Positions 17,875-52,490 of a DNA stretch of 64,000 nt are shown here, in pieces. The notes below the pieces were generated by a model. The model had not been told where the DNA came from. It did not search any database and saw nothing but the letters and a program-made list of their open reading frames with translations. The DNA is taken from IMG/VR virus record IMGVR_UViG_3300046524_000235; one strand, 5' to 3'. This stretch comes from a virus. Lineage: Duplodnaviria > Heunggongvirae > Uroviricota > Caudoviricetes. A program made the position numbers and the translations under genes. The first letter of the stretch is position 1. Each line of letters begins with the position of its first letter.

Positions 17875-17876
17875 AT

Positions 17877-18233: not shown

Positions 18234-18574
18234 AGTTGAGCCTCGATAAGGTCTGCGATTTGGTGAAAGTTGTATCCACGGCCATCATTAAGAAAAGGGA
18301 TAGACGAATGCATCGAATATCCTTCAACCTTAAATCTTATAGCCTGAAAGTTAACATCAGCCCATTCAGAGATATGGGAAGGAGGAAATCCTTCCATCGA
18401 ATCAAACGATTGCTTCTTAGCACCAGTCTCTTTATCATGAACCTCGCACAAGACACCAAGGCAGCAGTGAGATGTACTACCATCTACCTCGTTTTGCTTA
18501 AGCCTATACCGGGTCTGTTTGTACTCCCCGCTGCGCAAGGCTTCAACCCACAGTTTCTTTACACGTTCGTTCAT
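18230..18574 (-). CDS. CCLGVL-family paralog P5
   Basis: LWVEALRSGEYKQ, CCLGVLCE, LND…FHQIADLIEAQL. ATGA overlap with the neighbour. Confidence 0.6.
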   Translation of the reverse strand: MNERVKKLWVEALRSGEYKQTRYRLKQNEVDGSTSHCCLGVLCEVHDKETGAKKQSFDSMEGFPPSHISEWADVNFQAIRFKVEGYSMHSSIPFLNDGRGYNFHQIADLIEAQL

Positions 18575-19786: not shown

Positions 19787-20229
19787 TACAGAAACGCCTT
19801 GATAAGATCTGCGATTTGAGGAAAAGAAATACCAGCGTCATTTGCGCCAGCTACGCTTTCGTGGTATTCGGACATTTTGTCTTCATCAATCTCAATGTCT
19901 TCGCTATTGTGATCTTCGTCACGAGGAATAAAAGGAAGAAGAGGAATCGGTTCTTTCAAACCAGCCCAGTCTCTTACTATGGAGGTAAGTACTCCAGCTT
20001 CATCCCATTCATTAGGATTCCCACCAGGAGCATCCAGTGCATACCGCGTAACACCTGCCTTAACTCCGTAATCGCTCAGTTTCCACTTGCCACCATTTTC
20101 CTTGATGTACAGATCCGTGAGAACACCGAGACAGCACATTCCTTGGCCATCGTTAAGACAACCTTTAGTCTGTAAATATTCCCCGCTGTTCAAAGCTTCA
20201 ATCCATTCCTGCTTAATTTGTTCGTTCAT
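19786..20229 (-). CDS. CCLGVL-family paralog P1 (start at internal Met MNEQIK)
   Basis: EWIEALNSGEYLQ, CCLGVLTD, WAGL, ANDAGISFPQIADLIKAFL. The track ORF runs to 20334, but all paralogs begin MNExxK. Confidence 0.55.
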   Translation of the reverse strand: MNEQIKQEWIEALNSGEYLQTKGCLNDGQGMCCLGVLTDLYIKENGGKWKLSDYGVKAGVTRYALDAPGGNPNEWDEAGVLTSIVRDWAGLKEPIPLLPFIPRDEDHNSEDIEIDEDKMSEYHESVAGANDAGISFPQIADLIKAFL

Positions 20230-20375
20230 GGTCTTGATCCGGTATAGGTTATTATTACAATACAGGCTAACGCAATTGCGACGCCCAGTGTCCAAACTGA
20301 TGCCTTTAGAGCGGCCTTCATTTTGAGAAGCCAAAAAAGAGAGTGTAGAATTAAAGAGCTACTTCTTATACAACT

Positions 20376-20390
20376 CTCTTATACCAAAAT
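20376..20390 (-). promoter_or_regulatory. promoter-like motif (TTGGTATAAGAG in minus sense) upstream of the paralog array
   Basis: Plus-strand caactctcttataccaaaatt. Nearly identical to the copy at 6648..6668. Confidence 0.45.
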
Positions 20391-20402
20391 TGAGGACTAT
20401 AA

Positions 20403-21020
20403 TTAGTCGTCGTGCTTGCCGTCGTAATGACCTTTCCAGTACCCTTTATTCAATTCTCCGTTTATTGCCTTAACAAGAGTTTGAGCGGGAGCTTCTCTCA
20501 GAGCAAGCATCATTGCGAAGTTAGCAATATCGGTAGGGTCACCCTTGTACAAGTGTTCAACCAACATATCTGCAAGTTTATCAACACTGCACCTTTCAGG
20601 ATTGTCCCAACCGCCACGACCTTTCTCCCGAGCTTTAGCGAGCTTCGCTTTCATCATTGCTGCAAACTTATCCACAGCAACGTCGTCGGGATGAGGTTCT
20701 TCAACGGGTTGTTTGAAGCCCTGAAACATCTTCCTCAACTCTTCCATTCCCGCTTCAACTTGTCGAGCAGCTTCTGCAAAGGCCTCATACTGAGCAAATT
20801 GAACCGGAGACTTTTCATGTCCCAGAGCTTCAAGCATCATCTTCAGATCTTGCAAAGCAATTTCTCTATTCTTGTGCTGAGACCTGTGCGTATCACATGT
20901 AGCAGAAGCTCCTGTCGGGATATGAGTTGCACGAACCCCTACCCCCATAGAGGAGCCTACCCACGTTCTAGGCTCCGTATAAAACACATCTAACTTAATG
21001 TCTTTTGGATCAAGTTCCAT
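20403..21020 (-). CDS. release-factor (RF-1/GGQ-domain) homologue lacking the GGQ motif
   Basis: VRATHIPTGASATCDTHRSQHKNREIAL aligns to RF1 [28 protein letters not shown]. The position of SGAGGQHVN is occupied by PRTWVGSSMGVG, so there is no GGQ. Confidence 0.6.
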   Translation of the reverse strand: MELDPKDIKLDVFYTEPRTWVGSSMGVGVRATHIPTGASATCDTHRSQHKNREIALQDLKMMLEALGHEKSPVQFAQYEAFAEAARQVEAGMEELRKMFQGFKQPVEEPHPDDVAVDKFAAMMKAKLAKAREKGRGGWDNPERCSVDKLADMLVEHLYKGDPTDIANFAMMLALREAPAQTLVKAINGELNKGYWKGHYDGKHDD

Positions 21021-21273
21021 TTTTAGTATCTCTCATTGCATAGGCGAAGTCACCAAGGCTTGAGGCTTCTTCTGCCATTTGTTTAAGTTCTTTGATTCTT
21101 TCGGCCAGCGTAATCACTGCCTGAGCCGATGTGCTGATTACACCTTCAGCTTTGTACTTCTCCGCCAGCGCCAGAGCTTCGTTGATTGTCATTGTTGACA
21201 TTCTCCGTTTCGTCTTTGTAAAGATGAGCCTCACAGAACATGAAAGCTCGTCCCAGTTTGTCCACATGCACAA
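21010..21273 (-). CDS. hypothetical protein (87 aa)
   Basis: Intact ORF. Confidence 0.35.
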   Translation of the reverse strand: MCMWTNWDELSCSVRLIFTKTKRRMSTMTINEALALAEKYKAEGVISTSAQAVITLAERIKELKQMAEEASSLGDFAYAMRDTKNGT

Positions 21274-21586
21274 GCGAGCCGCTAAATTGACTCAGCTTAG
21301 TCGGTGACTTGGACCTACACCCGTCGCATTGATTGATCATTTTAGGTAAAGCACGATAGAGACGAAAGAAAATACAAAGAATCCTCCTGCAAAGAAAAGT
21401 TCGAATACAGTTGAGACTTTTCTTCCAGTAGGAAGATTTGTTTCTCGAATAGTAAGCACACCGAGAAGTAAACTGAGAATACAAAGAGTAATGTCGAGAA
21501 TAATATGAAACATAGATATACAAAAAGAAAAGTTAGGGGATACAGCACCAGGACCAGCCTAAGCCAGTCCCGGTGCGGTTCAGTTG

Positions 21587-21799
21587 TTACGCCGAACGTC
21601 GCGGATGATCCGGACCAGGCTTGATTTTGAACGGCATCAGAGCCGTTGCTTTACCGATGTTGTTGCCATTTTCAGCGAGTGCTTTCTGAAGATCGAAACC
21701 AGCGTCTTTGTTAAGCTGGTCACGGACCTTCTTCAGTTCTTGCTTGTTGTCGTGCGAGTGCTCGCCGTTCGTGCCACGGATGATCCAAACTTTCTTCAT
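21587..21799 (-). CDS. hypothetical protein (70 aa)
   Basis: Intact ORF. Confidence 0.4.
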   Translation of the reverse strand: MKKVWIIRGTNGEHSHDNKQELKKVRDQLNKDAGFDLQKALAENGNNIGKATALMPFKIKPGPDHPRRSA

Positions 21800-21859
21800 T
21801 TACAACTCCAGTATGGTTATTTTGTGAGAAGCCTAGAACTAGTCTAGGCACATGAATAC

Positions 21860-22252
21860 TTACTTGTTCATCTTGTAAGCGATGACAACCCGCTCGTTGC
21901 CCTTGCCCGTCACAACCGTGCGATTCTTCTTGCCGTTGCACGAGTTGAACGGGAAGTTGCCCGTCGAAGCCTTGTTGTCATGCTGCCAGCTGACACGGCT
22001 GGACTTGTTTTCCAGGTTACGACGCATCGCACCGTTCGCACGGTCCTTGGCAGTCTTGCCGACACGGGCACGCGGGTGATTCTCCGGGCCGATTTCCATG
22101 CCCTTCCAGAGAATCGTGACCTTCTCGCCACGGGTGATGGTGGTCTTGTGACCGTCCTTCACGACGATTTCCTTCGGACCTGCGTTCTTGAACTCCGGCT
22201 TCTTGCCGTTGAACTTTTGTTGGCGATTGTCAGCCATTTTATTACTCTCCAT
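21860..22252 (-). CDS. basic hypothetical protein (130 aa)
   Basis: Lys/Arg/Asn-rich. Promoter-like motif upstream. Confidence 0.4.
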   Translation of the reverse strand: MESNKMADNRQQKFNGKKPEFKNAGPKEIVVKDGHKTTITRGEKVTILWKGMEIGPENHPRARVGKTAKDRANGAMRRNLENKSSRVSWQHDNKASTGNFPFNSCNGKKNRTVVTGKGNERVVIAYKMNK

Positions 22253-22408
22253 TTCTTGGTTTAAAACTTCATCGAGTTTTGATAAGGAAAAAACAAACTA
22301 CTACTACAGTTGACCCACTACTTGTGTGTACTCCGAGTAGTGAGCCGTAAAGAAATGATTATGTGTTCCGTAATATACTTATACCAAGCCATATCACGAA
22401 ACTTGAAA

Positions 22409-23248
22409 TCAGTTTGCTTTGAACTGAAACTGGGTGCTTGCACCGGAACCGAGTTGATAGACCGGAAGTTTACCGTCCCATTTCTCGATCCACATCTGTT
22501 GCAGGATTTCCGGATTCTTGGCTAGTGCTTGACCACGAATAACCGTAGCCTGAGCATCGTTTGCTGCGATCTTCAGATCAGCATCCGAGTTTGCAATACG
22601 CTTTGCAGCTTCAGCCTGCGTCTTCTGCAGTTGGTTTTGCGAAGTGATTGCATCCATCTTTGCTTGTTGCTGTGCATTGATAGAAGCCTGGATTGCTTCC
22701 GGCCAATGGAAGGCACCGACGTTCGAAAGAAGCTCTACCGTCAGGCCATTAGGTGCTGCACGCTTGATAAGTTCAGCGTTGACCTTCGACATGAACGCGG
22801 GAATGTCATTGCTGATTTCATCGAACGTCAGATTGCCAGCAACTTCATTCAGGCTGTCACGAATCAGGTTACGAAGCGGACCCATCGTAATGCCATCAAG
22901 GTCTTTGTGATACTTCTGGAAGACGAGCGGAGCATTGTCTGCCGATATGTGGTACGAAATGCCGAAGTCAGCGTTGATGGCTACGCCGCCCTTTGCTTGA
23001 AACGTTACCGATTCATCGCTCGGATGACCTTCTTCCGGAGCCTTGCTGTACACGTAGTTTTCCGTGAACGTCGGATACTCGTACACAGTCGTGTTCCAGC
23101 CAGTAAAGTAACGGCCAGGGCCAAGAACCTTGGTTTGTACGCCACGGTCGCTGCCGTACATGTCTACCTGAACACCTACGAAGCCCGTTTCGACTTTGCT
23201 ACAAGCAGCGAGAAGCAGGGCTGCGATGATGAGGAAAATACGCTTCAT
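22409..23248 (-). CDS. SPFH/band-7 (prohibitin/HflK-like) lipoprotein
   Basis: MKRIFLIIAALLLAAC|S lipobox, then an SPFH-like domain and a Gln/Ala-rich coiled-coil. Start moved from 23314 to the MKRIF Met. Confidence 0.55.
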   Translation of the reverse strand: MKRIFLIIAALLLAACSKVETGFVGVQVDMYGSDRGVQTKVLGPGRYFTGWNTTVYEYPTFTENYVYSKAPEEGHPSDESVTFQAKGGVAINADFGISYHISADNAPLVFQKYHKDLDGITMGPLRNLIRDSLNEVAGNLTFDEISNDIPAFMSKVNAELIKRAAPNGLTVELLSNVGAFHWPEAIQASINAQQQAKMDAITSQNQLQKTQAEAAKRIANSDADLKIAANDAQATVIRGQALAKNPEILQQMWIEKWDGKLPVYQLGSGASTQFQFKAN

Positions 23249-23442
23249 TTCTTGGTTTTGCCTTTGAGAAAAAAGTGCCACACACAGAATGCTGTGAGTG
23301 GAATTGTGAGCCACAGGAGCGGGACGAGTACAATCAGATCTCCGCCATCATTCACTAACGACTTCGTTAGCGGCAACAGCAGAACCAGAAAGTACAGCGT
23401 CGCCAGAATCCCGTAAGAGACGAGAATGAGTTTCTTGTACAC
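23245..23442 (-). CDS. small membrane protein (65 aa)
   Basis: Two TM helices. Confidence 0.35.
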   Translation of the reverse strand: MYKKLILVSYGILATLYFLVLLLPLTKSLVNDGGDLIVLVPLLWLTIPLTAFCVWHFFLKGKTKK

Positions 23443-23443
23443 T

Positions 23444-23836
23444 TTAGAATCGTGGAAGGAAGTCGTACTTGAAAATCAATCCATCAATGACGCCGATGAT
23501 ATACTTTTTGTGCTTCAGTTTATCTTTTGGATATCCAAAATTGTATAGGATTTCATCGCAGTCCTCTTCAGACATTCCGAAAATTTCCACAGCGGCTTGA
23601 GTAAGATTATCACCGTGACTCTTCAGATCAGCATCACCGTTGTGGTCTTCAATCCAAATCGCTTCTCCAGCAAGGAAAGGATCGGTAGCAATCCATCCTG
23701 CCGCACACATCACACATTCAGTGAAATCCGCGGAATTCCACTTCGAAACAAAATCACCCAAGTAGATGTTTTCTTTCGGGATGTTCTTCAGCATACGACG
23801 AAGATGCTTCAATTTCTTAACGGTATTATTAGCCAT
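23444..23836 (-). CDS. hypothetical protein (130 aa)
   Basis: Intact ORF. Confidence 0.45.
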   Translation of the reverse strand: MANNTVKKLKHLRRMLKNIPKENIYLGDFVSKWNSADFTECVMCAAGWIATDPFLAGEAIWIEDHNGDADLKSHGDNLTQAAVEIFGMSEEDCDEILYNFGYPKDKLKHKKYIIGVIDGLIFKYDFLPRF

Positions 23837-23885
23837 TATTTCTCCTTGAAGAAGACCGAGATTTCTCCCGGCCCTCAGTTACGCT

Positions 23886-26030
23886 TTATGCAAAGAACGC
23901 CTTGACTGCACGACCCAGACGAATCCAGAAACCATCATCGCTGGAATAGCGAGCAGGTTCGATGAACTCAAACTCTTCTTCGTGATGTGCAGCGATTGCG
24001 CTGAACGACATGTCCGTGTTGCTGGTGCCCAGTTGGAACACAGCTTCTTGGAATGCCTCACCCTTTTCCAGCACCAACGTGAAGTCACTGTACTGAGCCG
24101 TACGGCCATCGCGCAGAGCCAGAGCATGTGCATTGCGGCACACGTTCTTGATCTGACGACCGTTCACTTCGTAGCTCGACAGATCCCAAATTTCGTCTTC
24201 CGTGAGGACTACGTCATTCAGGTTCAGGTTGTTTTCCCAGATCTTGTAACGATCACTTGCTTCGAGGCCAGGGAAGTTGATGGCCATGCTGATCCGCGAA
24301 TAGAACGCCTTGTCGATGTTCTTCGCACGGTTCGAGGTGAGGAACAGAACACCTTGGTAGTATTCCAGCAGACGCAGGAACACACCGACCATAGCGTTAC
24401 GTTGGATATTGCTATCCGTACGTGCTTCCATGAAGATGTCACATTCGTCAAGCAGCAGCACTGCGTTCCAGGTCGAAGCCACGTCCAGGATTTCACGCAG
24501 ATTGCCTTCCAACTCTTCTGCGGACGTTCCCAGTTCACCGACACCAACCATGTACAGCGGACGCTTCAGGTACTCTGCCGTAACTTCTGCAGTCAACGTC
24601 TTGCCCGTACCCGGCTCACCAGCCAGCAAGAAAATACAGCCGCCGCCCTTACCATCGATGATGTCCGGACGAGTGCTCTTCTCAAGCTGTGTTGCTACCA
24701 GTGAGAGAATCATGTTCTTCTGTGCTTCTTCCATCACTAGCTTGTCGTATGCATCGCTGCGGTACGCAATCTCGCTGATGTTTTCCACCAGCATTTCACC
24801 CCAGACTTTCGACAGGAACGAAAAGCCATAGACATACGGCGAGAATTGGAGATAGACTGATTCGTCGATGCTGACCGATTCCGACTTAGGCTTGTAACCA
24901 TAGCCTTGCTGATCCTGCGTACCGCCGAAGTACTTGTTATAGTTCGGATCCATTACCCGCATCGCTGTGAAGTCAACCATCACACGACCAGTCGAACGGA
25001 AGGCGGTGTCGCTCCAGTAACCACGGCGAATAAGATCACCCTTGTAAGCCATGTACGACGACTTCGACGTAAATTCGACTGCCTTCTTGCCACGAGCGAT
25101 GAGCGACTGCTTCAGCTCTTCGTTGTTCTTGATAGGCGTGAGGCCGAGTTCATTGAGCGACTTCTTACCTTCGAAGCCACCGAAGTAATACGAGTGACGG
25201 AACTTCTGAATCTCAGCACCGTTACGAGCGTACATGTGACCTGTTGCTTCGAGATACGGGCCAGCCATGCTCATGCGTTGATTTGCCGTGAAGGTACTGA
25301 TACCGAGCGATGTGCTGCCGTCATTCAATGCAAACTGGATGCCAGCTTGCGAAAGAAGAACCGAAAGTTCGTCGTACGAGAACTGGTCTTCAGCCTTCAG
25401 ATTGTCGATGTTCCCGAGCGTGCTTGCGTAGAACTCGTCAACTTCTGCAACAACACGGCTGACTTCCGCATGAACCCGGTTAGCCATGTCTTGATCGTCA
25501 TCGTACATGTACGCAACGTCGCTAAGATAACTCTCAATGGATCCTTTGCAACGGAAGATCTGCAGGCCAGAGATAAGTACCTGGGCACGGGCCATGTTGA
25601 ACGGACCTTCATTACCAATGTAGTTGAATTCATTGATGTGAAGGTTATACGATACGTCACGAATGGCATCGCCGTATTCTTGCAGGCTCTGACGGATGTC
25701 ATGCGGAATGTACACACTGATCTTGCCTGCACGTCCCTTGAACACTTCTGCAGGAGGACGCTTGCTGATTTCGACTTCAGCATTTGCTTGTTCTTGCTTC
25801 GCAGCTTCGACAAACGGGTCCTTCTGCTTCGTGATACCAAGAGTTTCAAGAGCCGCCTTGATCGATTCCGAAATCAGGGCTGCTTGAGTTGCTTCGGACG
25901 TGGTGGGGGCCGCAACTGCAGCTGCATTCGATTCCACGGCTTGAGTTTGGATTTCGCTCACGTTAATTTCCTTCGTTTCCATATCGATTATGCCTTGCGG
26001 CTTGGGTTGGCTAAACAAATTGACAAGCAA
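23886..26030 (-). CDS. AAA+ ATPase with large N-terminal domain (714 aa)
   Basis: Walker A (LLAGEPGTGKT), Walker B (LLLDECDIF), sensor (TSNRAKNIDKAFYSRI). Confidence 0.6.
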   Translation of the reverse strand: MLVNLFSQPKPQGIIDMETKEINVSEIQTQAVESNAAAVAAPTTSEATQAALISESIKAALETLGITKQKDPFVEAAKQEQANAEVEISKRPPAEVFKGRAGKISVYIPHDIRQSLQEYGDAIRDVSYNLHINEFNYIGNEGPFNMARAQVLISGLQIFRCKGSIESYLSDVAYMYDDDQDMANRVHAEVSRVVAEVDEFYASTLGNIDNLKAEDQFSYDELSVLLSQAGIQFALNDGSTSLGISTFTANQRMSMAGPYLEATGHMYARNGAEIQKFRHSYYFGGFEGKKSLNELGLTPIKNNEELKQSLIARGKKAVEFTSKSSYMAYKGDLIRRGYWSDTAFRSTGRVMVDFTAMRVMDPNYNKYFGGTQDQQGYGYKPKSESVSIDESVYLQFSPYVYGFSFLSKVWGEMLVENISEIAYRSDAYDKLVMEEAQKNMILSLVATQLEKSTRPDIIDGKGGGCIFLLAGEPGTGKTLTAEVTAEYLKRPLYMVGVGELGTSAEELEGNLREILDVASTWNAVLLLDECDIFMEARTDSNIQRNAMVGVFLRLLEYYQGVLFLTSNRAKNIDKAFYSRISMAINFPGLEASDRYKIWENNLNLNDVVLTEDEIWDLSSYEVNGRQIKNVCRNAHALALRDGRTAQYSDFTLVLEKGEAFQEAVFQLGTSNTDMSFSAIAAHHEEEFEFIEPARYSSDDGFWIRLGRAVKAFFA

Positions 26031-26081
26031 TAAAAAAGGACCTCGATATTAGCTGAGGTCCTGCGAAAAGCATGTGCTGCG

Positions 26082-26155
26082 TGGGCCATTCTGGACTTGA
26101 ACCAGAGACCGGACGATTATGAGTCGTCTGCTCTAACCAACTGAGCTAATGGCCC
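26082..26155 (-). tRNA. tRNA-Met or Ile2 (anticodon CAT)
   Basis: Cloverleaf: GGGCCAT/ATGGCCC acceptor, GCTC-AGTTGGTTA-GAGC, anticodon loop CTCATAA, T arm TCTGG-TTCAAGT-CCAGA. Confidence 0.75.
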
Positions 26156-26172
26156 ACATAGCACACGCCAAC

Positions 26173-26243
26173 TAAAACAAGGGGGACTCGAACCCCCAGC
26201 GTCACAAGAGTTTGTGCTGCTCTACCGATTGAGCTATTGTTTT
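26173..26243 (-). tRNA. tRNA-like element / probable pseudo-tRNA (anticodon not assignable)
   Basis: All-A·U acceptor AAAACAA/TTGTTTT, good D arm and GGGGG-TTCGAGT-CCCCC T arm. The only clean anticodon stem (CACAA/TTGTG) encloses a 4-nt loop. Confidence 0.35.
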
Positions 26244-26264
26244 AAAAAGATATTCTCTTTTACA

Positions 26265-26280
26265 ATTCTCTTATACCACG
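26265..26280 (-). promoter_or_regulatory. promoter-like motif upstream of the tRNA pair
   Basis: Plus-strand attctcttataccacg. Confidence 0.4.
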
Positions 26281-26290
26281 GTCAGGTACA

Positions 26291-26533
26291 TTAATTGATT
26301 AACGCTTCGCCGTCAACAATCGTCAACGTACCTTTAACAACGCATGCCGCTTTGGTATGTACGTTATCGGGAGTCTCTTTTGTTGTAAAGCCAATACCCG
26401 GCGAGATATGTATGTGAGTGACGTACTCCGTCTTACCGTTAACTTTGATGACCCAAGGAGGAATCGATTGATCCAGATTGTGCGCTTTGTTAAAGTGAAA
26501 GACAATTTTATCCTTTTTCATGCTGCCCTCCAC
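26291..26533 (-). CDS. hypothetical protein (80 aa)
   Basis: Intact ORF. Confidence 0.35.
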   Translation of the reverse strand: MEGSMKKDKIVFHFNKAHNLDQSIPPWVIKVNGKTEYVTHIHISPGIGFTTKETPDNVHTKAACVVKGTLTIVDGEALIN

Positions 26534-26832
26534 AGACGCATATTGCTAAACAACTTTCGTTGTTCGTCAGTGACGGGTGCAGTGGTGATAGACGTGTAAC
26601 CCATGTCATCGTCTGGTTCGAAGAAGTCATAGAATTGAATGTTATTTGCCCAGATTTTATCTCTGAGTTTCATAAGCTCTTCTTTGTTCTTAACTTCGAG
26701 CAGAATGAGTGACGGAATTTTTCCGTTAAGGGGGTTTGACTCGTTTCCAGCATGAAAAGCTGAATGAGCAGTCTGAACGATTTGATCAGCGAGGGGAATA
26801 TCTTTGCGAATGATTGAATAGATGTAAGACAT
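26518..26832 (-). CDS. hypothetical protein (104 aa)
   Basis: Intact ORF. Confidence 0.4.
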   Translation of the reverse strand: MSYIYSIIRKDIPLADQIVQTAHSAFHAGNESNPLNGKIPSLILLEVKNKEELMKLRDKIWANNIQFYDFFEPDDDMGYTSITTAPVTDEQRKLFSNMRLWRAA

Positions 26833-26948
26833 GATTTTCTCTTTAAATGAATTAGGTACTGCAATTTACTGCGCCAAATTTCAATTCAAAGAGTGTCTTA
26901 CGGAGGTTTTGTAACCTAGAGCTTATTAAGCTTCATGATGTTTCCTTT

Positions 26949-27266
26949 TTAAGATGCTACACGATTAATGGGTGGCAGTGCATTTAACAAAGCCTTAGAC
27001 AAAGCATCAGCTTCTTCTTTAAAGCCTTGTTTAAGGATACTAGTATGTAGTTCCCACATTGCTTTCCGTTCTTCGTTAGAAATATTGGAATCTAATTTCC
27101 AACCTTCTGGCCAAAGAGGCCAAGCCGCGCAAGGCCCTTTATGACCTCTATCCGCACGACAACTCCAACCTGCAGGAGGAAGATCACATTTGCTCATATT
27201 AATTCTTTGTGGAAAGGACATATCGAACCTTAGCCAGTTTAAAAGCGTCGATGTATCTAGATTCAC
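26949..27266 (-). CDS. hypothetical protein (105 aa)
   Basis: Intact ORF. Confidence 0.35.
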   Translation of the reverse strand: MNLDTSTLLNWLRFDMSFPQRINMSKCDLPPAGWSCRADRGHKGPCAAWPLWPEGWKLDSNISNEERKAMWELHTSILKQGFKEEADALSKALLNALPPINRVAS

Positions 27267-27393
27267 CCCTGAGAGTATCCCAGACTAAGACTTCTTCTTC
27301 ACGCTGGTATTCTTCACACTCTATTACAACGAGTTTACCGAGACTGCCATCTGCAGGCTCATAAACCTGACCAAGTTCAATGCCATACTTCAT
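27199..27393 (-). CDS. hypothetical small protein (start at MKYGIEL)
   Basis: The track ORF's N-terminal 24 aa are the reverse complement of the tRNA, so the start is trimmed. Confidence 0.3.
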   Translation of the reverse strand: MKYGIELGQVYEPADGSLGKLVVIECEEYQREEEVLVWDTLRGESRYIDAFKLAKVRYVLSTKN

Positions 27394-27416
27394 GATGAAC
27401 CTTGTGGTGAAAACGA

Positions 27417-41362: not shown

Positions 41363-41710
41363 TTATTTCTCCTTATTGCACAAGTGTACTTGCAACTCGT
41401 TCCCGTTAGGGAGGCTCGGGTCGAGGACGGCGTAGCCGTTCTAAGTAGGGACCCGAAGTTTATTACCAGAAAGTTACTCGCTGGCCTTCGTTTTAAAACA
41501 CTAAAACAAACACATACTTGCAAGCTACCGTAAAACATCTACGGTATTAAAGGTACTACTGGGGTAAACTCGTGGTTGTGTACCTGGTCTGGGTAAAGAC
41601 ATCCTTCGATGTCTTCCCAGAGAGTAAAAGAGGAAGTAGCTTCCTCTACCATCTGCTATTACGATGACTATACTTTACCCAGATACTTATACCACGATTA
41701 CGTCATTTAT

Positions 41711-44131
41711 TTAAAGACGCGGATCCATTTCTTTCTCTTGGTTGAGTTGCGAGATCATCTTCACAATCAACTCAGTCATTGCAGGACCGTTGTCAGCCGA
41801 AAGCATCTTCGTTGCCAGTTCGAACTCCTTGATAGAGACCTTCAGTTTACCACCAACTCGCTTCTGCTTGCACAGTGCTTCGTAGCGACGTTTGTAGTCG
41901 AAGCCATAGACGAGAGTCAGGTAATTTTCATTCCGGACTTTCATATACGGTGCTACGTCTTCAGGTCCGGCGAGAGGTTTAATGACAACACCCTCCATGC
42001 CGTGTTCGATAGTCAGTTCCTTGAAGAAGTTTTCAGCCATTTGCAGCTGGCTCTCATCATCGAGATCGATGACCAGCCAGTCATCCCCATTCACTTCATC
42101 GAATGAGTCAGCTTGTTCAACGCGAGTAAATACATTGCCATCGATTTTCAGAATTGCAAACGGCTTGTAATATGGCTCGCCAGTTGCGGAGTACAGATTC
42201 AGCGTATCCGAAAACGTCTTCAGATCGTTCTCAAGCAAATCCTGAGCATCGATCTTCTGCTTAAAGTCAAGCTTAGCAAATTCTTCGTCCTGAGCAAGTG
42301 TCGAAAGCTCATAGTGTACAAGACCTTCATACGCTTTGAACTGCTCTTCAACAAGACCAGTACCAAGAGTCGTCCACGGCAGAAGCTCACCGTCCAGAAT
42401 AAGTTCATCGAACGAATTCGGAAGGAACTTTTCTTCATACTCAGCAAGAAGCTTCTGAAGCATAACAGTAAGCTCTTCTGTCATGCGAATCTTGAATCCA
42501 TTTCTGGAAACAAGGAAACACTTCTCCGGTTGACCGTGATACAGATACGCCTGACAACGTGAGCCCATGTACTTCGGTTGAATAGCAACCTGATCTACAC
42601 CCTTGTCTTTGAAGTACTTAAGACCAGCTTCAAGGCTTTCGATCTTACCTTCGGTTGACGGAGCCGGAGCCATCGTACCAGAAATGTACTTAATGCCGTT
42701 CTTCAGCGTACGATTCAAAAACTTCATGTCGTCTGGAGACAACTTATAATCATAAATGCTGAAGGGACGCTCCTTCAAACCGATAGGTACGGTCAAGTCA
42801 GACTTCAACTCTTTTTGATGCTCGACCAGCGACTCGGTCTTGACATCGACGTAAACATATCGATTGTTTTTGTACGAAAACGCAGTAAGCTTGTTACCGT
42901 ACACTGCTCCGGTATCCAGGAAGATCTTGTTACGGAACTCAATCTTACCGGCATTGTGAGCAACGTGACCGAATACATGAATAGGATGGTTACGAACAGC
43001 CTGATCGAAGATGAACTTGTACGCTTCACGATAGTCTTTATCACGACGACCGAAAAGATTACGCTGCGCCTTAAGTGCATCATTGCTCAGCTTACCCAGA
43101 TACTTGTTTTCACAAGGAGCATGGGTTACATACACGGTTCGTATATCCCGTCCAAATACTTTCAGGAACGGAGTAGAGTGATTGTCAAACAAGTCAACAA
43201 GCACGGCGGCAAGGTCAGGACGTTCCAGGAGAACCTTAAGTGAAGACATATACTTAGCCTCCAGTTCAAGATCAGGATTTTTGATTTCGCCCTTGATACG
43301 CTTCACAGCGTAGCTCTCATGGTTTCCGTGAATGATACGGCCACCTTCGTCAACAAACTTTGAAACCAGCCGAAGCATGTTCTCCGTGTCATTGCCTTTG
43401 TCTAGATAATCACCTACAAGAACGTTGATACTGTCCTTAGGCAACTTCTCCAGCATTTCAGTAAGACCCTTAACGTGCTCATGGGTATCACCGATGATGT
43501 TCAGCTCTTTGTTCGAAGTCAAGTACAAGCTGCTCTTGGCATAAACATCGAGGTCTTTGATTTCAACTTCGATATCAGCCCAGTACTTCGGATCACGTTC
43601 ACGGATACGGATGTTTCCGTCGTGTTCTTTTCGGCCAAGGTTAGGAAGAACGTGCTGCTTAAAACGAGCTGCACTGCTGTCTACTACTAGCTTTTCTTCC
43701 GGCGTAGATTCAGACGAATATGACTTATTGGTGTACTCGAAAGTAACCAGTTCAGTACGATACTCGTTGGTTTCCGCAAGAGTCCTGACTTTCTTTCGGA
43801 ACTCGTCGTTCATGCCAGTCGTATCAACGATCACGAACTCGCTGTTGACAGGGAACATGATCGCAGCTTCAAGTTTCGCCATCAAGACCTTAAACGCGGC
43901 CTCTGAAGCCTCCGCCATGAGCGGGGAATACCGATGGAGGTTCTTATGGCCGTAAAGGCTCTCACGCTCGGAATCGGAGCTGATAATAGGAATTGCACAG
44001 CTCGCTCCAAGCCCTGCTTTGGCCATTTCTTCGCCAAGCGCAAGTTGAAGTTGGTGTGAGAACGTGCTCTTACCGCACATCGAAGGTCCGACGAGAATAA
44101 AAACGGTATGGAGCTTAGTTTCGATTTTCAT
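41711..44131 (-). CDS. Pnkp-like RNA repair enzyme: polynucleotide kinase - metallophosphatase - ligase
   Basis: P-loop (VGPSMCGKST), calcineurin-like phosphoesterase motifs (GDTHEH, GDYLDKGN, GNHE), C-terminal KxDG nucleotidyltransferase motif (LKIDGN). Confidence 0.6.
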   Translation of the reverse strand: MKIETKLHTVFILVGPSMCGKSTFSHQLQLALGEEMAKAGLGASCAIPIISSDSERESLYGHKNLHRYSPLMAEASEAAFKVLMAKLEAAIMFPVNSEFVIVDTTGMNDEFRKKVRTLAETNEYRTELVTFEYTNKSYSSESTPEEKLVVDSSAARFKQHVLPNLGRKEHDGNIRIRERDPKYWADIEVEIKDLDVYAKSSLYLTSNKELNIIGDTHEHVKGLTEMLEKLPKDSINVLVGDYLDKGNDTENMLRLVSKFVDEGGRIIHGNHESYAVKRIKGEIKNPDLELEAKYMSSLKVLLERPDLAAVLVDLFDNHSTPFLKVFGRDIRTVYVTHAPCENKYLGKLSNDALKAQRNLFGRRDKDYREAYKFIFDQAVRNHPIHVFGHVAHNAGKIEFRNKIFLDTGAVYGNKLTAFSYKNNRYVYVDVKTESLVEHQKELKSDLTVPIGLKERPFSIYDYKLSPDDMKFLNRTLKNGIKYISGTMAPAPSTEGKIESLEAGLKYFKDKGVDQVAIQPKYMGSRCQAYLYHGQPEKCFLVSRNGFKIRMTEELTVMLQKLLAEYEEKFLPNSFDELILDGELLPWTTLGTGLVEEQFKAYEGLVHYELSTLAQDEEFAKLDFKQKIDAQDLLENDLKTFSDTLNLYSATGEPYYKPFAILKIDGNVFTRVEQADSFDEVNGDDWLVIDLDDESQLQMAENFFKELTIEHGMEGVVIKPLAGPEDVAPYMKVRNENYLTLVYGFDYKRRYEALCKQKRVGGKLKVSIKEFELATKMLSADNGPAMTELIVKMISQLNQEKEMDPRL

Positions 44132-45438
44132 GCTTGATCCTTGTTCTTAGTTACTACCACCATCGTCGAAGTAGCAATGTTATTTACACTATCACCGATT
44201 CCTTGAACAGAAATAGAGATTGCATGACCTTCCGAAACATTCCAGAACCAGTCACCGAATTCTTTAAGGCCCGGCTCCCACTTGTGATCATCATGACGGA
44301 ACTGTGTTTCGTCCATCAGATAGTTCACATTGAATTCCTTGTTAGGAACCGTGAGAATCAGCTTGTTGAAGTTAGTCTTCAGCACGGCTTGAATCAGCTC
44401 TGCTGCGACATCCTTTTCCATGTGTTCAAGCACTTCAGTGATGAGTACATCAGCTCCATCGAATAGAGCGCTGCAATCGTCAATTGATTCAGGAGTTGCT
44501 GCTTCTTTGAAGGTGATATTCTCAACTCCTCGACCACTGGCTTTCCCCACGGCGTTCTCACGTACTTCGTCATCCGCTTCATACGCAAGGATTTGTTCAT
44601 ACTTTGCACTGAGCGGGATCGAATAATTGAGTTCGCCGCACCCAATGTCAATGAGGACCGACCCTCCTCCCAAATGCGGGAAGATAGCCTCTTTACGTTG
44701 ACTGAGAGTGTCCCCGTGCCAGAGGTTAATACTGGGCGTATCGAGCAACGGCTTGTTTTTAGCAAAGGTTTCACGATTCGTAAACACATTCCGTTTAAAG
44801 AGGTATCGGATGAAGTAAGGTGCATCGATGCGATTAATTGCATTGATGTACTTTTCAATGATATCTCCCTTAAGGTTGACGTAAATGCTCTTTGTCGTAA
44901 CGCAGAACATCAAGAAAATAACCATTGCTGCATTCAGAAGATGATGAACACTAGGTCCGACAATGCGAACTTTGTATGCATGACCAGAAATCAGTTCTGC
45001 ATGAAAGCTGTAGCCTTGATCGAAACCAAACGGCCCATTGAAATGTTGCTCCATGTGCCTAAGCGTGCTTGCACTGCGAATCTCAACCGTAGTTTCGAGC
45101 CATGCGCTAAAAGGAACACTAGCATCTTCTTCCTGATGTTCTTTGAACGCAGTTGCCAGGCAGTTCGTCATCAGGCTAATCGGAAGGTACGGCGAAGCAT
45201 AGCGAGTACGATCAAGATACTCAAACTCCTGGTCCCGCCCTTCGGCAAATGAGCAGTGCAGAGCATGATCCTTGAACCACAACCTAAAAGCTTGGTCTCC
45301 TTCTAGAAACCATCCGTACACTGAACCTTGTCGGATGGACTTCTTAAACGGATCTTTCGATTCACGAATCGTTGCGGGGTTTTTCTGAATGACCCAAGAA
45401 AACTTCGGGTTACTAGACCCAAGAGTAAGCACTGACAT
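44128..45438 (-). CDS. Hen1-like RNA 3'-terminal 2'-O-methyltransferase
   Basis: C-terminal SAM-MTase motifs (VLIDIGCGELNY, DVLITEVLEHM). About 250-aa N-terminal domain. Translationally coupled to the Pnkp-like gene. Confidence 0.5.
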   Translation of the reverse strand: MSVLTLGSSNPKFSWVIQKNPATIRESKDPFKKSIRQGSVYGWFLEGDQAFRLWFKDHALHCSFAEGRDQEFEYLDRTRYASPYLPISLMTNCLATAFKEHQEEDASVPFSAWLETTVEIRSASTLRHMEQHFNGPFGFDQGYSFHAELISGHAYKVRIVGPSVHHLLNAAMVIFLMFCVTTKSIYVNLKGDIIEKYINAINRIDAPYFIRYLFKRNVFTNRETFAKNKPLLDTPSINLWHGDTLSQRKEAIFPHLGGGSVLIDIGCGELNYSIPLSAKYEQILAYEADDEVRENAVGKASGRGVENITFKEAATPESIDDCSALFDGADVLITEVLEHMEKDVAAELIQAVLKTNFNKLILTVPNKEFNVNYLMDETQFRHDDHKWEPGLKEFGDWFWNVSEGHAISISVQGIGDSVNNIATSTMVVVTKNKDQA

Positions 45439-45507
45439 TATTTAACCTTTTTGGAAGAGAGGTTTATGGACGACATAAATGATAGGACGAATCCTATCGT
45501 AATACTT

Positions 45508-45522
45508 CACTTATACCAAAAT
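45508..45522 (-). promoter_or_regulatory. promoter-like motif upstream of the Hen1-Pnkp operon
   Basis: Plus-strand cacttataccaaaat, next to a GATAGGA-CGAA-TCCTATC hairpin. Confidence 0.4.
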
Positions 45523-45710
45523 CATAGGTATTGTGTGAAAGGTCCAGTTGGATCTGGTTGGCGAGTGAAGGTTGCTGGGCCTTTAAAGGCGTCTTCATAA
45601 TAACCGCAAGACTTACATTCTACCCAAAGAGGTGCATTGACTAGACGGTGTTTATTCAATTCGCCGCATTCAGGGCATTCTTCTAGGATATTGGTCATTG
45701 CAGTTTCCAC
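45522..45710 (-). CDS. zinc-ribbon protein (62 aa)
   Basis: CPECG…CKSCG. Confidence 0.4.
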   Translation of the reverse strand: METAMTNILEECPECGELNKHRLVNAPLWVECKSCGYYEDAFKGPATFTRQPDPTGPFTQYL

Positions 45711-46925: not shown

Positions 46926-47651
46926 TTAATTCTCCTTGACGGCCTTATCGACCTTATCCAAAATAGTAAGCACCTTGTCAATATCAAACTTGTCTTCAGT
47001 GCGAGCACCGGATTCAAGATCGATCCAAACGAAGCCTTCTTCCACATCTTTGTGTTGCTGTAGCAATTCGAACACTGTTTGTTCTACGTTGTCTACGTTG
47101 ATTCCACCTGCATAACCTACGTCATACCGGCTAGCCCAAGGTTCTGGAATATCCGGCCATCCTGCTTCCTGCCAGGAAATACCTCTGCCGCCAGAAGCGT
47201 CAAGGAGAATTTTCAGATCAGGAGGTACATCTTCATCGAACATTCCATTGAGAAGAATGTCGGTGTTCTGACTATACTGGACGATTACAGTATTCTTCTC
47301 AGCCTTTGCGAATTCAAAGATCAAGTCTTTGTTTTCCGCAGTCAAGAAATTGAACTGAACTGCGTTGTACCCTAGCGTTACTTCGTTTTCGAAATGTTTC
47401 CAAGAAGACAGAAACGCCTCTACCGATTTGCCACAAAGATGCGCAGCAAGAGTGTAGTATTCACCTCTATCGTTCGTTGCCCAGTACAGCTTCTCCCTCC
47501 ACTGTGCTGTTGGGTAACGAGGTTGGCCCTCACGGGATTTAGAAAATAGAATGCCCCATTCTACGAACGGGTATTCACGACCGATATCATCAAGAAGATT
47601 TGGATCAACCGCATCATCTGCACCGGTAATAGTAACGCCTAGTTCAATCAT
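46926..47651 (-). CDS. TIM-barrel protein, phosphoribosylanthranilate isomerase (TrpF)-like
   Basis: ILLDASGGRGISW…GYAGGINVDNV…IDLESGAR resembles TrpF blocks. Confidence 0.4.
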   Translation of the reverse strand: MIELGVTITGADDAVDPNLLDDIGREYPFVEWGILFSKSREGQPRYPTAQWREKLYWATNDRGEYYTLAAHLCGKSVEAFLSSWKHFENEVTLGYNAVQFNFLTAENKDLIFEFAKAEKNTVIVQYSQNTDILLNGMFDEDVPPDLKILLDASGGRGISWQEAGWPDIPEPWASRYDVGYAGGINVDNVEQTVFELLQQHKDVEEGFVWIDLESGARTEDKFDIDKVLTILDKVDKAVKEN

Positions 47652-51128: not shown

Positions 51129-51608
51129 TTAGTTGCTATAGTATCCTGAAACCAGCCATGCTGGTTCCGTGTAGCTTATACCATACTTCTCGCAGAAATT
51201 GCGCAGTCTATCGATCTCTTCTTGAGACACTTCCAGGTCCTCTGGATCGAGCTTTGTGCAATCCCAGATTTCTCCTACTGATACCTTCTTTGAATACAGA
51301 ATGTATGCAGGATATTCACTTGTGCCGTAGTGTTCTATTCCGACGCCTACATTTTCCAAGGCGTTATGCTTAGCATCCCAGTAAGCACAATACAACTCCT
51401 TGGTTTCTTCTGAATAATCTTCTGTTGGGTGCACTACTCCTAATTCTTTCAGAATCAAACTTTCAACAGCGTCTCCAACGCCATCGTAGTTTTCTTCTCC
51501 CACCGCTTCCCGAAGAGTATTTTCAAACTTCTCAAACTCTTCGTAGTCATCTTCGATACCCCCTAGATCAATACCGAAAACTAACTTTATATCTATACTC
51601 ATCCCCAT
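51129..51608 (-). CDS. hypothetical acidic protein (159 aa)
   Basis: Intact ORF. Confidence 0.4.
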   Translation of the reverse strand: MGMSIDIKLVFGIDLGGIEDDYEEFEKFENTLREAVGEENYDGVGDAVESLILKELGVVHPTEDYSEETKELYCAYWDAKHNALENVGVGIEHYGTSEYPAYILYSKKVSVGEIWDCTKLDPEDLEVSQEEIDRLRNFCEKYGISYTEPAWLVSGYYSN

Positions 51609-52438
51609 TACTGCCCCGCATGAAAAAGTCTAAACGAACCTTGACTCACAGTAAGCGACGTGAGCTTAGGAACATCATTAATAACTTCAATTGCACTTCT
51701 GATTACTTCTCTTGATGCTGGCTTGTTAGCGTCAGGAATCAACGACCAAGTATGGTCATCAATCGCTACGAGCTTCTTAAACTTCTTGGTGAACGTACCT
51801 TGCCTAAAAGATTCAGGATAGTCGTGGAAGTTAATCCCTACTTGTCGAAGCATTTCAATTTTCTCAGCAGTGTTTTTATGAAGCAACTCTGAGTTGTTGA
51901 AGACCGTGTGCGCAGCCATGCTGACACTGTTCTTACGAGCATCCCACTGACGCCATACAAAGTAATCATATGCTTGCTCCCATTTTGGGAATTGGAATAC
52001 ACGAGCATCAAAGACTGGACGTGCTGCGAATTTGCTCGGCAGGAAGCCTTGCAAGTAACTGTTAAAAATCACTGAGCACTTTGCAGCATAGACGCTTAGC
52101 CATTTCTGAACCTTGCCATCAAAGTTCAGCTGTGCAGTAGGATCCCTATTAAACCAAAGAAGACTGATCTCATCGCTCTGGTGGTATGCCAGATCAGGAT
52201 TCAATTCCTTGATCAGATCATCCACTGTACATTGAAACGTTTGAGCCAGTTCTTTATCGTAGGGCTTGGTGAGACCCTTTGTGAATGTATGGAATGCGTT
52301 CCCATCAAAGCGAATGACAGTCGGCAGACCTGGCATCAAGTGTTCGCTGTTGTACTTCTTTTCATACCGCTTCATTTCGTCGCCAAGAGCGTTGAAATCA
52401 AGATGGCGAATTTCTTCTGTTATCTGTGTCTGTGTCAT
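51608..52438 (-). CDS. Thg1-like protein (tRNA-His guanylyltransferase family, 3'-5' polymerase)
   Basis: VIRFDGNAFHTFTKGLTKPYD matches the Thg1/TLP active-site signature. Start moved to ATG at 52438, because the track's TTG-initiated extension is the reverse complement of a hairpin. Confidence 0.55.
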   Translation of the reverse strand: MTQTQITEEIRHLDFNALGDEMKRYEKKYNSEHLMPGLPTVIRFDGNAFHTFTKGLTKPYDKELAQTFQCTVDDLIKELNPDLAYHQSDEISLLWFNRDPTAQLNFDGKVQKWLSVYAAKCSVIFNSYLQGFLPSKFAARPVFDARVFQFPKWEQAYDYFVWRQWDARKNSVSMAAHTVFNNSELLHKNTAEKIEMLRQVGINFHDYPESFRQGTFTKKFKKLVAIDDHTWSLIPDANKPASREVIRSAIEVINDVPKLTSLTVSQGSFRLFHAGQ

Positions 52439-52451
52439 TTGAGTAAACCAA

Positions 52452-52490
52452 AAAAAACCGGGGAGGTCGAGTCCCCGGTCAAAGACCAAT
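52452..52490 (-). terminator. hairpin + T8 (intrinsic terminator or attenuator) 13 nt upstream of the Thg1-like start
   Basis: Minus sense: CCGGGGA-CTCGACC-TCCCCGG then TTTTTTTT. Confidence 0.4.

Follow-up and report, generated by a model that had tools for sequence, protein, structure and literature searches.

The classical Pnkp-Hen1 systems of Clostridium thermocellum and Anabaena variabilis (NCBIfam families TIGR04075/TIGR04074), whose mechanism has been characterised (PMC3675462, PMC4411300), are encoded by two adjacent co-oriented genes, one for a single-polypeptide Pnkp with kinase, binuclear metallophosphoesterase and Pnkp-type ligase in this order, the other for Hen1, composed of an N-terminal ligase-binding domain and a C-terminal methyltransferase. 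The N-terminal module of Hen1 binds and activates the ligase in the characterised systems (PMC4411300, PMC3675462). In Capnocytophaga gingivalis the activities are assembled into a Pnkp1-Rnl-Hen1 heterohexamer (PDB 4XRP/4XRU), which repairs ribotoxin-cleaved tRNA with 2'-O-methylation in vitro (PMC4411300). [quoted passage not shown] Among cultured jumbo phages, a Hen1 gene adjoins a Pnkp-type ligase in Xanthomonas phage XacN1 (ORF197-199), Vibrio phage RYC, Stenotrophomonas phages CM1/RAS14 and Vibrio phage sm033; in XacN1, whose genome also encodes 56 tRNAs, Thg1, a CCA-adding enzyme and Pth, the pair was annotated as PNKP/Hen1 already in 2018 (PMC5852040).

Here we analyse a 64-kb window, i.e. 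the whole stretch of 64,000 nucleotides, from a tailed phage contig of 181,869 bp. The phage origin assumed in the first-pass annotation is supported by the presence of PolA, primase, RNR, NAD salvage and a tRNA array and by relatives in IMG/VR, at least 20 contigs of which carry related cassettes. Both reading frames are present exactly as reported, and the hen1 stop overlaps the pnkp start within ATGA, so that the two genes are, as read from this junction, translationally coupled.

41711..44131, minus strand: pnkp, whole gene with stop, for a predicted 806-aa trifunctional kinase-phosphatase-ligase (ORF, junction, Pfam, co-linear profile matches to three CthPnkp domain structures, dN/dS)
44128..45438, minus strand: hen1, whole gene, for a predicted 436-aa RNA 3'-terminal ribose 2'-O-methyltransferase (ORF, Pfam Hen1_N, PDB phmmer, AF2 model, Foldseek, dN/dS)
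41629..41647, minus strand: weak candidate for a terminator-like hairpin, 8-bp stem followed by a T-rich tail (consensus scan only)
45481..45498, minus strand: weak candidate hairpin, 7-bp stem and TTCG loop, in the 83-nt spacer upstream of hen1 (consensus scan and sequence read)

The terminator-like hairpin, 64 nt beyond the pnkp stop, is probably the end of the hen1-pnkp transcription unit, and the second hairpin may serve to terminate transcription of the upstream gene or, alternatively, to stabilise RNA. The span originally given, 41711-45527, encloses the genes but runs 89 nt too far into the upstream intergenic region containing this hairpin. The order hen1 then pnkp was also given correctly, yet it is not unusual: hen1 is placed directly upstream of pnkp and co-oriented in most viral and cellular loci of the clade, exceptions being L019 and L038, with hen1 divergently oriented, and L020 and L021, with hen1 2-6 kb upstream, and the Anabaena operon is likewise written hen1-pnkP (PMC8421152). 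No regulator adjoins the phage pair, in contrast to classical Pnkp-Hen1; within the clade, a Paenibacillus member does have a WYL/WCX regulator, transcribed divergently.

For Pnkp, the proposed order of kinase, phosphatase and ligase is borne out by a family profile co-linear with the solved CthPnkp domains (E 2.8e-9, 2.6e-14 and 2e-37, respectively), and the Pfam profiles AAA_33 (aa 10-135, E 5.9e-8), Metallophos (aa 212-393, E 1.9e-9) and PNKP_ligase (PF16542; aa 480-777, E 2.3e-27) match far beyond chance. All motifs quoted earlier are found, i.e. GDTHEH (aa 214), GDYLDKGN (aa 240), GNHE (aa 269) and LKIDGN (aa 661).

43622..44131, minus strand: 5'-OH polynucleotide kinase domain of Pnkp, aa 1-170, with P-loop G15-x4-G20-K21-S/T, D53-x-x-R56 and R112 (AAA_33, family profile, invariant residues)
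42839..43540, minus strand: binuclear metallophosphoesterase (2',3'-phosphatase) domain of Pnkp, aa ~198-431, with D215, H217, D241, K245, N270, H271, H337, H389 and D406 (Metallophos, alignment to 4J6O)
41714..42733, minus strand: ligase (adenylyltransferase) domain of Pnkp, aa 467-806, with motif I K520-Y-M-G-S-R, D580-G-E582, E713-G-V-V-x-K718 and K731-x-R733 (PNKP_ligase, PDB matches, invariant residues)

Within the kinase domain, the family profile matches the CthPnk structures 4GP6/4GP7/4JST at positions 1-169 (E about 3e-9). The catalytic residues of Pnkp are invariant in an alignment of 120 homologs, and of nine residues essential to the CthPnkp phosphatase, the phage enzyme keeps eight unchanged (alignment to 4J6O). 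The position of CthPnkp Arg237, in contrast, is occupied by an invariant Lys throughout the clade. As the CthPnkp mutants R237A, R237K and R237Q lose the Mn-dependent phosphomonoesterase step and gain in cyclic-phosphodiesterase kcat (PMC3675462), the 3'-end chemistry of the phage Pnkp could differ from that of classical enzymes.

The ligase active site had been placed at LKIDGN, which we reject as motif I. K520, within QPKYMGSR, is the lysine that falls on motif I (KxMGS) in alignments with Capnocytophaga Rnl and the CthPnkp ligase and is invariant in the family, and the ligase thus retains a catalytic Lys, the predicted nucleotidyl-lysine being K520. K662 of LKIDGN varies among homologs and was ruled out as this site. 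Against the PDB, the closest solved relative of the ligase domain is Capnocytophaga Rnl (4XRU_B; 133.9 bits with the single sequence, 230.8 bits with the family profile), ahead of the Cth ligase (43.9 and 132 bits).

44740..45429, minus strand: Hen1 N-terminal domain, aa 4-233 (Pfam PF22032, 168 bits)
44146..44700, minus strand: Hen1 methyltransferase domain, aa ~247-431, with SAM motif D264-x-G266-C-G268-E269, E335-x-x-E338-H339 and R381-H382-x-D384-H385-x-x-E388

The Hen1 motifs noticed before, LIDIGCGE (aa 262) and EVLEHM (aa 335), are present, and the assignment as a SAM methyltransferase of the bacterial Hen1 type is supported by the Hen1-specific N-terminal domain (Hen1_N PF22032, E 3e-49) and by the fold. 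Phmmer against the PDB aligns the protein over its full length with Capnocytophaga Hen1 (4XRP_C; E 2.2e-29, 105.6 bits), and an AlphaFold (AF2) model with a pLDDT of 92.5 superposes along the whole protein on Hen1 from the Pnkp1/Rnl/Hen1 complex (4XRP/4XRU; TM 0.78-0.81, Foldseek). Hen1 methyltransferase domains rank next, above any small-molecule methyltransferase; PDB matches of the methyltransferase domain include those of Cth and Ava Hen1 and Arabidopsis HEN1. In two homolog sets, of 116 and of 44 sequences, the motif residues of this phage domain are either invariant or conserved to at least 95%.

All four active sites of classical Pnkp-Hen1 thus keep their catalytic residues in the phage pair, but the phage sequences are very divergent, single-sequence phmmer finding only parts of the Cth domains. 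Scores against the equivalog models TIGR04075 (Pnkp; 142.8 versus a cut-off of 750 bits) and TIGR04074 (Hen1; 63.7 versus 340 bits) fall far under the cut-offs, which places the pair in a divergent clade and makes functional equivalence an extrapolation across about 20-25% identity. The bacterial Pnkp architecture read earlier stands as regards the domain order, that of classical Clostridium Pnkp; the pair itself is not classical Pnkp/Hen1. The Capnocytophaga system differs in that its ligase is a separate protein, its hen1 lies apart from the pnkp1-rnl operon and its healing enzyme is a T4-like Pnkp1 with a HAD phosphatase, whereas the phage ligase is fused to the kinase and a calcineurin-like phosphatase and the phage genes overlap. 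Pnkp1 (4XRP chain A) is not among all 19 matches (up to E 1) of the N-terminal half of the phage Pnkp and is absent from the best 60 of 129 family-profile matches (up to E 0.1). The T4 phosphatase (HAD) and ligase (Rnl1) families are unrelated to those of the phage pair. The cultured jumbo-phage proteins share 27-32% identity with the window proteins and are organised differently, XacN1 having a separate kinase, Hen1 and a stand-alone ligase, RYC a stand-alone ligase and a Hen1-kinase-HAD phosphatase fusion. Among 50,697 deposited phage records, the three-domain Pnkp has no match covering at least 80%, and the cassette is missing from the cultured phages nearest by PolA (Salmonella phage Arash; Vibrio phages D69, D181 and D148), so that it is dispensable for phages of this type. 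The locus is a known kind of system, correctly recognised by the first-pass annotation, in a divergent and mostly unannotated branch.

We consider it probable that the cassette is a functional Hen1-Pnkp RNA repair pair of a ~182-kb tailed phage lineage, countering tRNA/rRNA-cleaving nucleases. Rather unlikely, though deserving most weight among the alternatives, is a housekeeping role in maintaining the phage's own tRNAs or other RNAs after incidental damage or processing errors, rather than dedicated anti-defence. The window encodes 21 tRNA genes (ARAGORN; including Lys-UUU, Glu-UUC, Gln-UUG, Arg-UCU, Tyr, Asn and Asp), Thg1 and Pth2, the Anabaena hen1-pnkP operon is switched on late when translation is under general stress (PMC8421152), and even for bacteria it is not known on which substrates Pnkp-Hen1 acts in vivo (PMC4411300). 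Yet none of the window tRNAs is intron-containing or split so as to need ligation (ARAGORN), the tRNA array lies 6-27 kb off in a separate operon, the loci L016, L018 and L020-L027 have the pair with flanks devoid of tRNA genes, and methylation of the junction makes sense only under a threat of re-cleavage. In keeping with the favoured reading, two viral loci unrelated to each other, L019 and L021, also encode Thg1 no more than about 5 kb from the Pnkp gene.

Polynucleotide kinase-phosphatases are also able to act on DNA ends. The pair adjoins RNase H and a Pol X-like enzyme (NT334) inside the DNA replication module, and five related viral contigs share the order PolA-…-Hen1-Pnkp-orf117-RNR, a position that does not itself point to RNA repair and would fit an enzyme healing 5'-OH/3'-phosphate DNA or RNA-DNA ends and sealing nicks together with these neighbours. 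We regard such a role in DNA replication or repair as improbable: the obligately linked Hen1, an RNA ribose 2'-O-methyltransferase, finds no substrate on DNA, both Cgi Rnl and the CthPnkp ligase, the closest characterised ligases, work in RNA repair, and L013 retains Hen1-Pnkp in a locus without NT334 and RNase H. That the genes are a non-functional or neutral passenger recently acquired from a bacterial host, for which homologs in Paenibacillus, Saccharibacillus, Caldisericales and Cloacimonadota and the absence from the nearest cultured phages might speak, is very hard to uphold and largely refuted by the invariant catalytic residues, synteny kept across phage contigs diverged to 49-75% identity, dN/dS values (hen1 0.12-0.15, pnkp about 0.13) indicating purifying selection, and a neighbour-joining tree (no bootstrap) that puts the window's ligase domain into a branch of 11 loci, all of them viral.

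Repair of RNA breaks by the phage pair in a heal-methylate-seal pathway is well supported by homology, and action against host anticodon nucleases would be a reasonable reading of the context. Based on the Clostridium/Anabaena Pnkp-Hen1 and the Capnocytophaga Pnkp1-Rnl-Hen1 systems, we propose a model according to which the Pnkp phosphatase would take off the cyclic phosphate, Hen1 would use SAM to methylate the 2'-OH of the new 3'-terminal nucleotide, the Pnkp kinase would phosphorylate the 5' end, and the ligase, adenylylated on K520 and licensed by the Hen1 N-terminal domain, would seal the break, resulting in a 2'-O-methyl junction resistant to transesterifying nucleases. Cut tRNAs would probably be resealed in this way with the joint methylated against a second cut, and the repair pair, working alongside the phage's 21 tRNA genes, Thg1 and Pth2, would keep translation running once tRNA- or rRNA-cleaving defence nucleases of the host or of a competitor are triggered.

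The two reading frames that the first-pass annotation had described as a Hen1-Pnkp RNA repair cassette, an 806-aa protein (Pnkp) and a 436-aa protein (Hen1), are both found on the minus strand, and each of the motifs quoted for them lies where expected in the two proteins. The immediate locus comprises the following features:

41711..44131, minus strand, pnkp, 806 aa (ORF call)
44128..45438, minus strand, hen1, 436 aa (ORF call)
64 nt beyond pnkp, terminator-like hairpin (consensus match only)
within the 83-nt spacer before hen1, small TTCG-loop hairpin (consensus match only)
45522..45710, minus strand, 62-aa CxxC…CxxC zinc-ribbon ORF between hen1 and NT334, a 334-aa Pol X-like neighbour (weak sub-threshold Lar-like match)

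The stop codon of hen1 overlaps the start codon of pnkp within an ATGA, an arrangement typical of translationally coupled genes. Hen1 adjoins pnkp on the same strand here and in most of the fetched viral and cellular loci carrying relatives of the pair. The previously noted order hen1 then pnkp is therefore present and has to be dismissed as a distinguishing trait, since it is common to most of these loci and apparently also is the classical order ('hen1-pnkP operon', PMC8421152; Figure 1A legend, PMC3675462). Apart from this non-distinctive gene order and a wrongly chosen ligase lysine motif, the earlier finding is real and its interpretation essentially right.

The domains and conserved positions of both proteins are listed below, the profile positions referring to a Pnkp family profile built from 30 homologs and searched against PDB structures:

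Hen1 aa 4-233, Hen1 N-terminal domain PF22032 (Pfam, E 3e-49)
Pnkp aa 10-135, AAA_33 (Pfam, E 5.9e-8)
Pnkp aa 212-393, Metallophos (Pfam)
Pnkp aa 480-777, Pnkp-specific ligase domain PF16542 (Pfam, E 2.3e-27)
profile positions 1-169, kinase, matching CthPnk (Clostridium thermocellum) 4GP6/4GP7/4JST (E ~3e-9)
profile positions 198-427, phosphatase, matching 4J6O (E 2.6e-14)
profile positions 479-778, ligase, matching 3TY5/3TY8/3TY9/4DRF (E ~2e-37)
kinase, conserved residues G20-K21, D53, R56, R112 (D53-x-x-R56) (120 homologs / 30-sequence set)
phosphatase, conserved residues D215, H217, D241, N270, H271, H337, H389, D406 (120 homologs / 30-sequence set)
ligase, conserved residues K520, G523, S524, R525, D580, E582, E713, G714, K718, K731, R733 (120 homologs / 30-sequence set)

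The methyltransferase half of Hen1 gives weak generic matches in Pfam. Using phmmer, the C-terminal half matches the methyltransferase domains of C. thermocellum (Cth) and Anabaena (Ava) Hen1 as well as plant and human HEN1, and Hen1 from the Pnkp1-Rnl-Hen1 structure 4XRP aligns over the whole length (E 2.2e-29). The AlphaFold2 model, for which 44 homologs were used, has high confidence (pLDDT 92.5). Its best PDB matches are to Hen1 in full length, three chains from 4XRP/4XRU (TM 0.78-0.81), followed by Hen1 methyltransferase domains and only after these by small-molecule methyltransferases. The PF22032 match, the full-length 4XRP match and this fold ranking show that the Hen1-specific N-terminal domain is present and the methyltransferase is nearest to Hen1 enzymes, arguing against an unrelated small-molecule methyltransferase, the possibility raised in the first-pass annotation. 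Homologs conserve the SAM motif D264-x-G-C-G-E269 and the motifs E335-x-x-E338-H339 (ExxEH) and R381-H382-x-D384-H385-x-x-E388 (RHxDHxxE), the residues of the latter two being, as we assume, metal ligands. By its domains the protein may be likened to bacterial Hen1 (TIGR04074), which performs Mn-dependent 2'-O-methylation of the 3'-terminal ribonucleotide.

The solved domains of CthPnkp are matched by the profile in the same order as in Pnkp, and the strongest match is to Rnl, the stand-alone ligase of the Capnocytophaga complex (4XRU_B; 230.8 bits using the profile and 133.9 using the sequence by itself). By its sequence, Pnkp has the N-terminal P-loop 5'-OH polynucleotide kinase of classical Pnkp and a C-terminal Pnkp-type ligase with its motif I lysine; across 120 homologs the expected catalytic residues reach 95% conservation or more, and in the 30-sequence set they are invariant. 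The catalytic lysine had been placed in LKIDGN (K662) as a KxDG motif, which is ruled out because K662 is not conserved, while K520 (QPKYMGSR) is invariant and aligns with motif I, which reads KHMGS in CthPnkp and KYMGS in the Rnl of Capnocytophaga gingivalis (Cgi). K520 is presumably the counterpart of Cth Lys531.

Nine residues are essential in the CthPnkp phosphatase according to mutagenesis (D187, H189, D233, R237, N263, H264, H323, H376 and D392; PMC3675462), and eight of these are identical in the aligned window Pnkp (D215, H217, D241, N270, H271, H337, H389 and D406). The ninth, Arg237 in GDxxDRG, is replaced by K245 in GDYLDKG (motif II; window ~43397..43399). All 114 homologs with a readable motif have lysine at this site, as does every fetched locus with a readable motif, viral or cellular, which makes Lys-for-Arg237 a signature of the clade. 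In CthPnkp, where R237A, R237K and R237Q were the mutants examined, changing Arg237 eliminated the Mn-dependent monoesterase step, making the completion of 3' healing uncertain in the clade, and R237K raised the kcat of the cyclic-phosphodiesterase (PMC3675462). By analogy, the lysine variant might alter the 3'-end chemistry.

Both proteins score far below the curated NCBI equivalog cut-offs, Pnkp with 142.8 bits against 750 (TIGR04075) and Hen1 with 63.7 bits against 340 (TIGR04074), the latter alignment being restricted to the methyltransferase part. Relatives within the clade from Paenibacillus, Caldisericales, a Saprospiraceae MAG and other viral contigs are below these thresholds as well (66-189 bits). 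Judged from sequence, the pair belongs to a kind of system that is already known, of which it is a divergent member. With classical CthPnkp the clade shares the fused domain order and the calcineurin-type phosphatase; in the classical system the ligase becomes active only when the Hen1 N-terminal domain binds to it, Pnkp and Hen1 forming a complex. The window encodes both partner domains, and the same may apply here. The clade's ligase and Hen1 are closest to the proteins of the Capnocytophaga Pnkp1-Rnl-Hen1 system. However, Rnl is a stand-alone polypeptide in Capnocytophaga whereas the ligase of the window is the C-terminal domain of the 806-aa ORF, and healing is done there by a T4-like Pnkp1 composed of kinase and HAD phosphatase whereas the window phosphatase is calcineurin-like. 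In addition, Capnocytophaga hen1 is unlinked from the pnkp1-rnl operon (PMC4411300), in contrast to the overlapping genes of the window. Pfam found no HAD_PNKP domain in the window Pnkp, while Vibrio phage RYC has one. Neither Cgi Pnkp1 (4XRP chain A) nor T4 Pnk appears in the complete match list of the N-terminal half (E up to 1) or among the best 60 of 129 profile matches (E up to 0.1), and these lists give no sign of a relation between the healing half and either protein.

Judging from its genes, the window represents phage DNA: it encodes a split PolA, RNase H, primase, exonuclease, RNR, a ThyX-like protein, NAMPT and NMNAT/Nudix, nearly all genes being on one strand. Identical proteins are encoded on a 181,869-bp contig recovered twice at equal length with different start points, pointing to a complete, circularly permuted assembly. 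When the region was compared by megablast with 50,697 phage records, no nucleotide relatives were returned; among deposited phages, Salmonella phage Arash and Vibrio phages D69, D181 and D148 come nearest by PolA (44-46% identity), all of them without the cassette. Further features of the window are:

8721..11329, minus strand, NAD+ salvage pair of NAMPT and an NMNAT-Nudix fusion
14626..35630, minus strand, array of 21 tRNA genes, including Lys-UUU, Glu-UUC, Gln-UUG, Arg-UCU, Tyr, Asn and Asp
20403..21020, minus strand, RF-1-domain protein, 205 aa, catalytic GGQ replaced: …GSSMGVGVRATHIPTG…
26172..26244, minus strand, tRNA with an aberrant two-base anticodon call
27405..27480, minus strand, tRNA with anticodon CTA, amber-suppressor-like (ARAGORN label 'Pyl')
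30445..31005, minus strand, T5orf172/GIY-YIG-like endonuclease inside the tRNA array
31588..32001, minus strand, Pth2 peptidyl-tRNA hydrolase inside the tRNA array (E 7e-32)
46926..47651, minus strand, 241-aa conserved ORF (orf241; faint PRAI/TIM-barrel match only)
51608..52489, minus strand, Thg1-family 3'-5' polymerase, 7 kb upstream of hen1 (PF04446, E 1.5e-27)

The Thg1 family acts in tRNA 5'-end repair or maturation, and NAD+ salvage genes are often taken as a counter to NAD-depleting host defences. Known anticodon nucleases cut isoacceptors of the same kinds as the named tRNAs; the tRNA cluster begins a few kb downstream of RNR in related viral contigs too, and the endonuclease and Pth2 within the array recall SegB in the T4 tRNA region. 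TAG terminates just 4 of the 94 minus-strand ORFs, all small or doubtful, which could reflect avoidance of TAG or its recoding in another part of the genome. The RF-1-domain protein is excluded as a ribosome-rescue hydrolase by the missing GGQ motif.

The mechanism can be formulated by homology with two reconstituted systems, the observation itself being the presence and conservation of the parts. The phosphatase would open and then remove the 2',3'-cyclic phosphate, Hen1 would methylate the terminal 2'-OH, the kinase would phosphorylate the 5'-OH and the ligase would seal the break via K520-AMP with access gated by the Hen1 N-terminal domain, so that the methylated junction would no longer be attacked by transesterifying RNases. 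Our tentative model, which we hold at slightly under an even chance, is that the window carries a largely virus-borne, unnamed third lineage of Hen1-linked RNA repair (fused Pnkp, Capnocytophaga-type Rnl/Hen1 and Lys-for-Arg237) used by large phages for 'repair-and-immunise' counter-defence, in which tRNAs cut by host anticodon nucleases would be resealed with a 2'-O-methyl junction and remain resistant for the rest of the infection. The counter-defence reading is favoured because the element is a phage, because this phage carries genes for tRNA replacement, 5'-end repair and peptidyl-tRNA recycling, and because T4 Pnk/Rnl1 acting against PrrC is a precedent.

Housekeeping care of the phage's tRNA pool, with its 21 tRNA genes, Thg1 and Pth2, is judged less likely than counter-defence. 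Likewise less likely is DNA-end processing within the replication module, the pair being embedded in the order Thg1-PolA-RNaseH-orf241-NT334-Hen1-Pnkp-orf117-RNR, which is conserved in four related IMG/VR contigs. A fifth contig (L013) has PolA-Hen1-Pnkp-orf117-RNR with the three intervening genes absent; since NT334 is missing at this position there and has no Pfam match, we left it out of the system as the cassette's RlaP or CCA-adding RNA nucleotidyltransferase. That the pair is a neutral passenger is less likely too: hen1 and pnkp show dN/dS of 0.12-0.15 versus 0.03-0.11 for PolA/RNR, with dS saturated in several pairs, and are under purifying selection, looser than that on PolA and RNR.

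Scans by exact peptide patterns, giving lower bounds, found at least 20 viral and at least 11 cellular loci. A neighbour-joining tree built on the ligase domain (no bootstrap) places the window in a branch of 11 loci, all viral, and other viral sequences pair with cellular ones. Thg1 lies within ~5 kb of the Pnkp homolog in two unrelated viral loci (L019, L021). In the chromosomal setting of Paenibacillus sp. HGH0039 (L029, 2221..3552) a WYL/WCX-domain regulator is transcribed divergently from hen1-pnkp, which suggests ligand-sensing control of the bacterial cassette, whereas the phage version is without such a regulator. Two loci labelled as giant-virus MAGs (L026/L027; IMG/VR GVMAG-M-3300014493-9, 3300021083) encode Hen1 and a Pnkp-like protein that keeps KYMGSR and has no recognisable metallophosphoesterase motifs.

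At least three Hen1-linked architectures occur among phages. XacN1 has separate kinase, Hen1 and ligase. In RYC (L005, AP014858.1, 4937..8154) a CDS labelled 'polynucleotide kinase' combines four modules, Hen1_N, methyltransferase, kinase and HAD phosphatase, and follows a Pnkp-type ligase that is unannotated. The arrangement is in effect a Pnkp1-Rnl-Hen1-type system in which Hen1 and Pnkp1 are joined; this four-module fusion is also present in IMG/VR locus L023. Among deposited phage records, none matches the three-domain protein over 80% or more of its length, and the uncultivated-phage relatives are essentially unannotated, being labelled 'predicted kinase' or 'hypothetical protein' at source. 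The XacN1 genome paper (2018) lists ORF197/198 as PNKP and Hen1 homolog among tRNA-processing genes (PMC5852040), an annotation-level remark that is the only phage report of Hen1-Pnkp in the literature we found, and Borg elements are reported to encode a putative Pnkp1-Rnl-Hen1 complex. A 2021 jumbo-phage survey names RNA ligases, kinases, HAD and a few calcineurin-like phosphatases, RlaP, the CCA-adding enzyme, Thg1 and Pth as answers to anticodon-loop cleavage, never mentioning Hen1 (PMC7824862). Our literature search found no experimental work on a phage Hen1-linked system or on Hen1 counter-defence; the phage context of Hen1-Pnkp has been noted before.

For bacteria, PMC4411300 leaves open what Pnkp-Hen1 repair acts on in vivo and what role it plays. 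The phage setting offers a concrete, testable role, i.e. counter-defence against tRNA-cleaving immune nucleases, which would go one step further than T4 Pnk/Rnl1 because the repaired site would become uncuttable. Large uncultivated phages commonly carry this branch, relatives being present in at least 20 IMG/VR contigs, and if the joint counter-defence reading is true, it would assign a natural biological role to a Hen1-Pnkp system for the first time.
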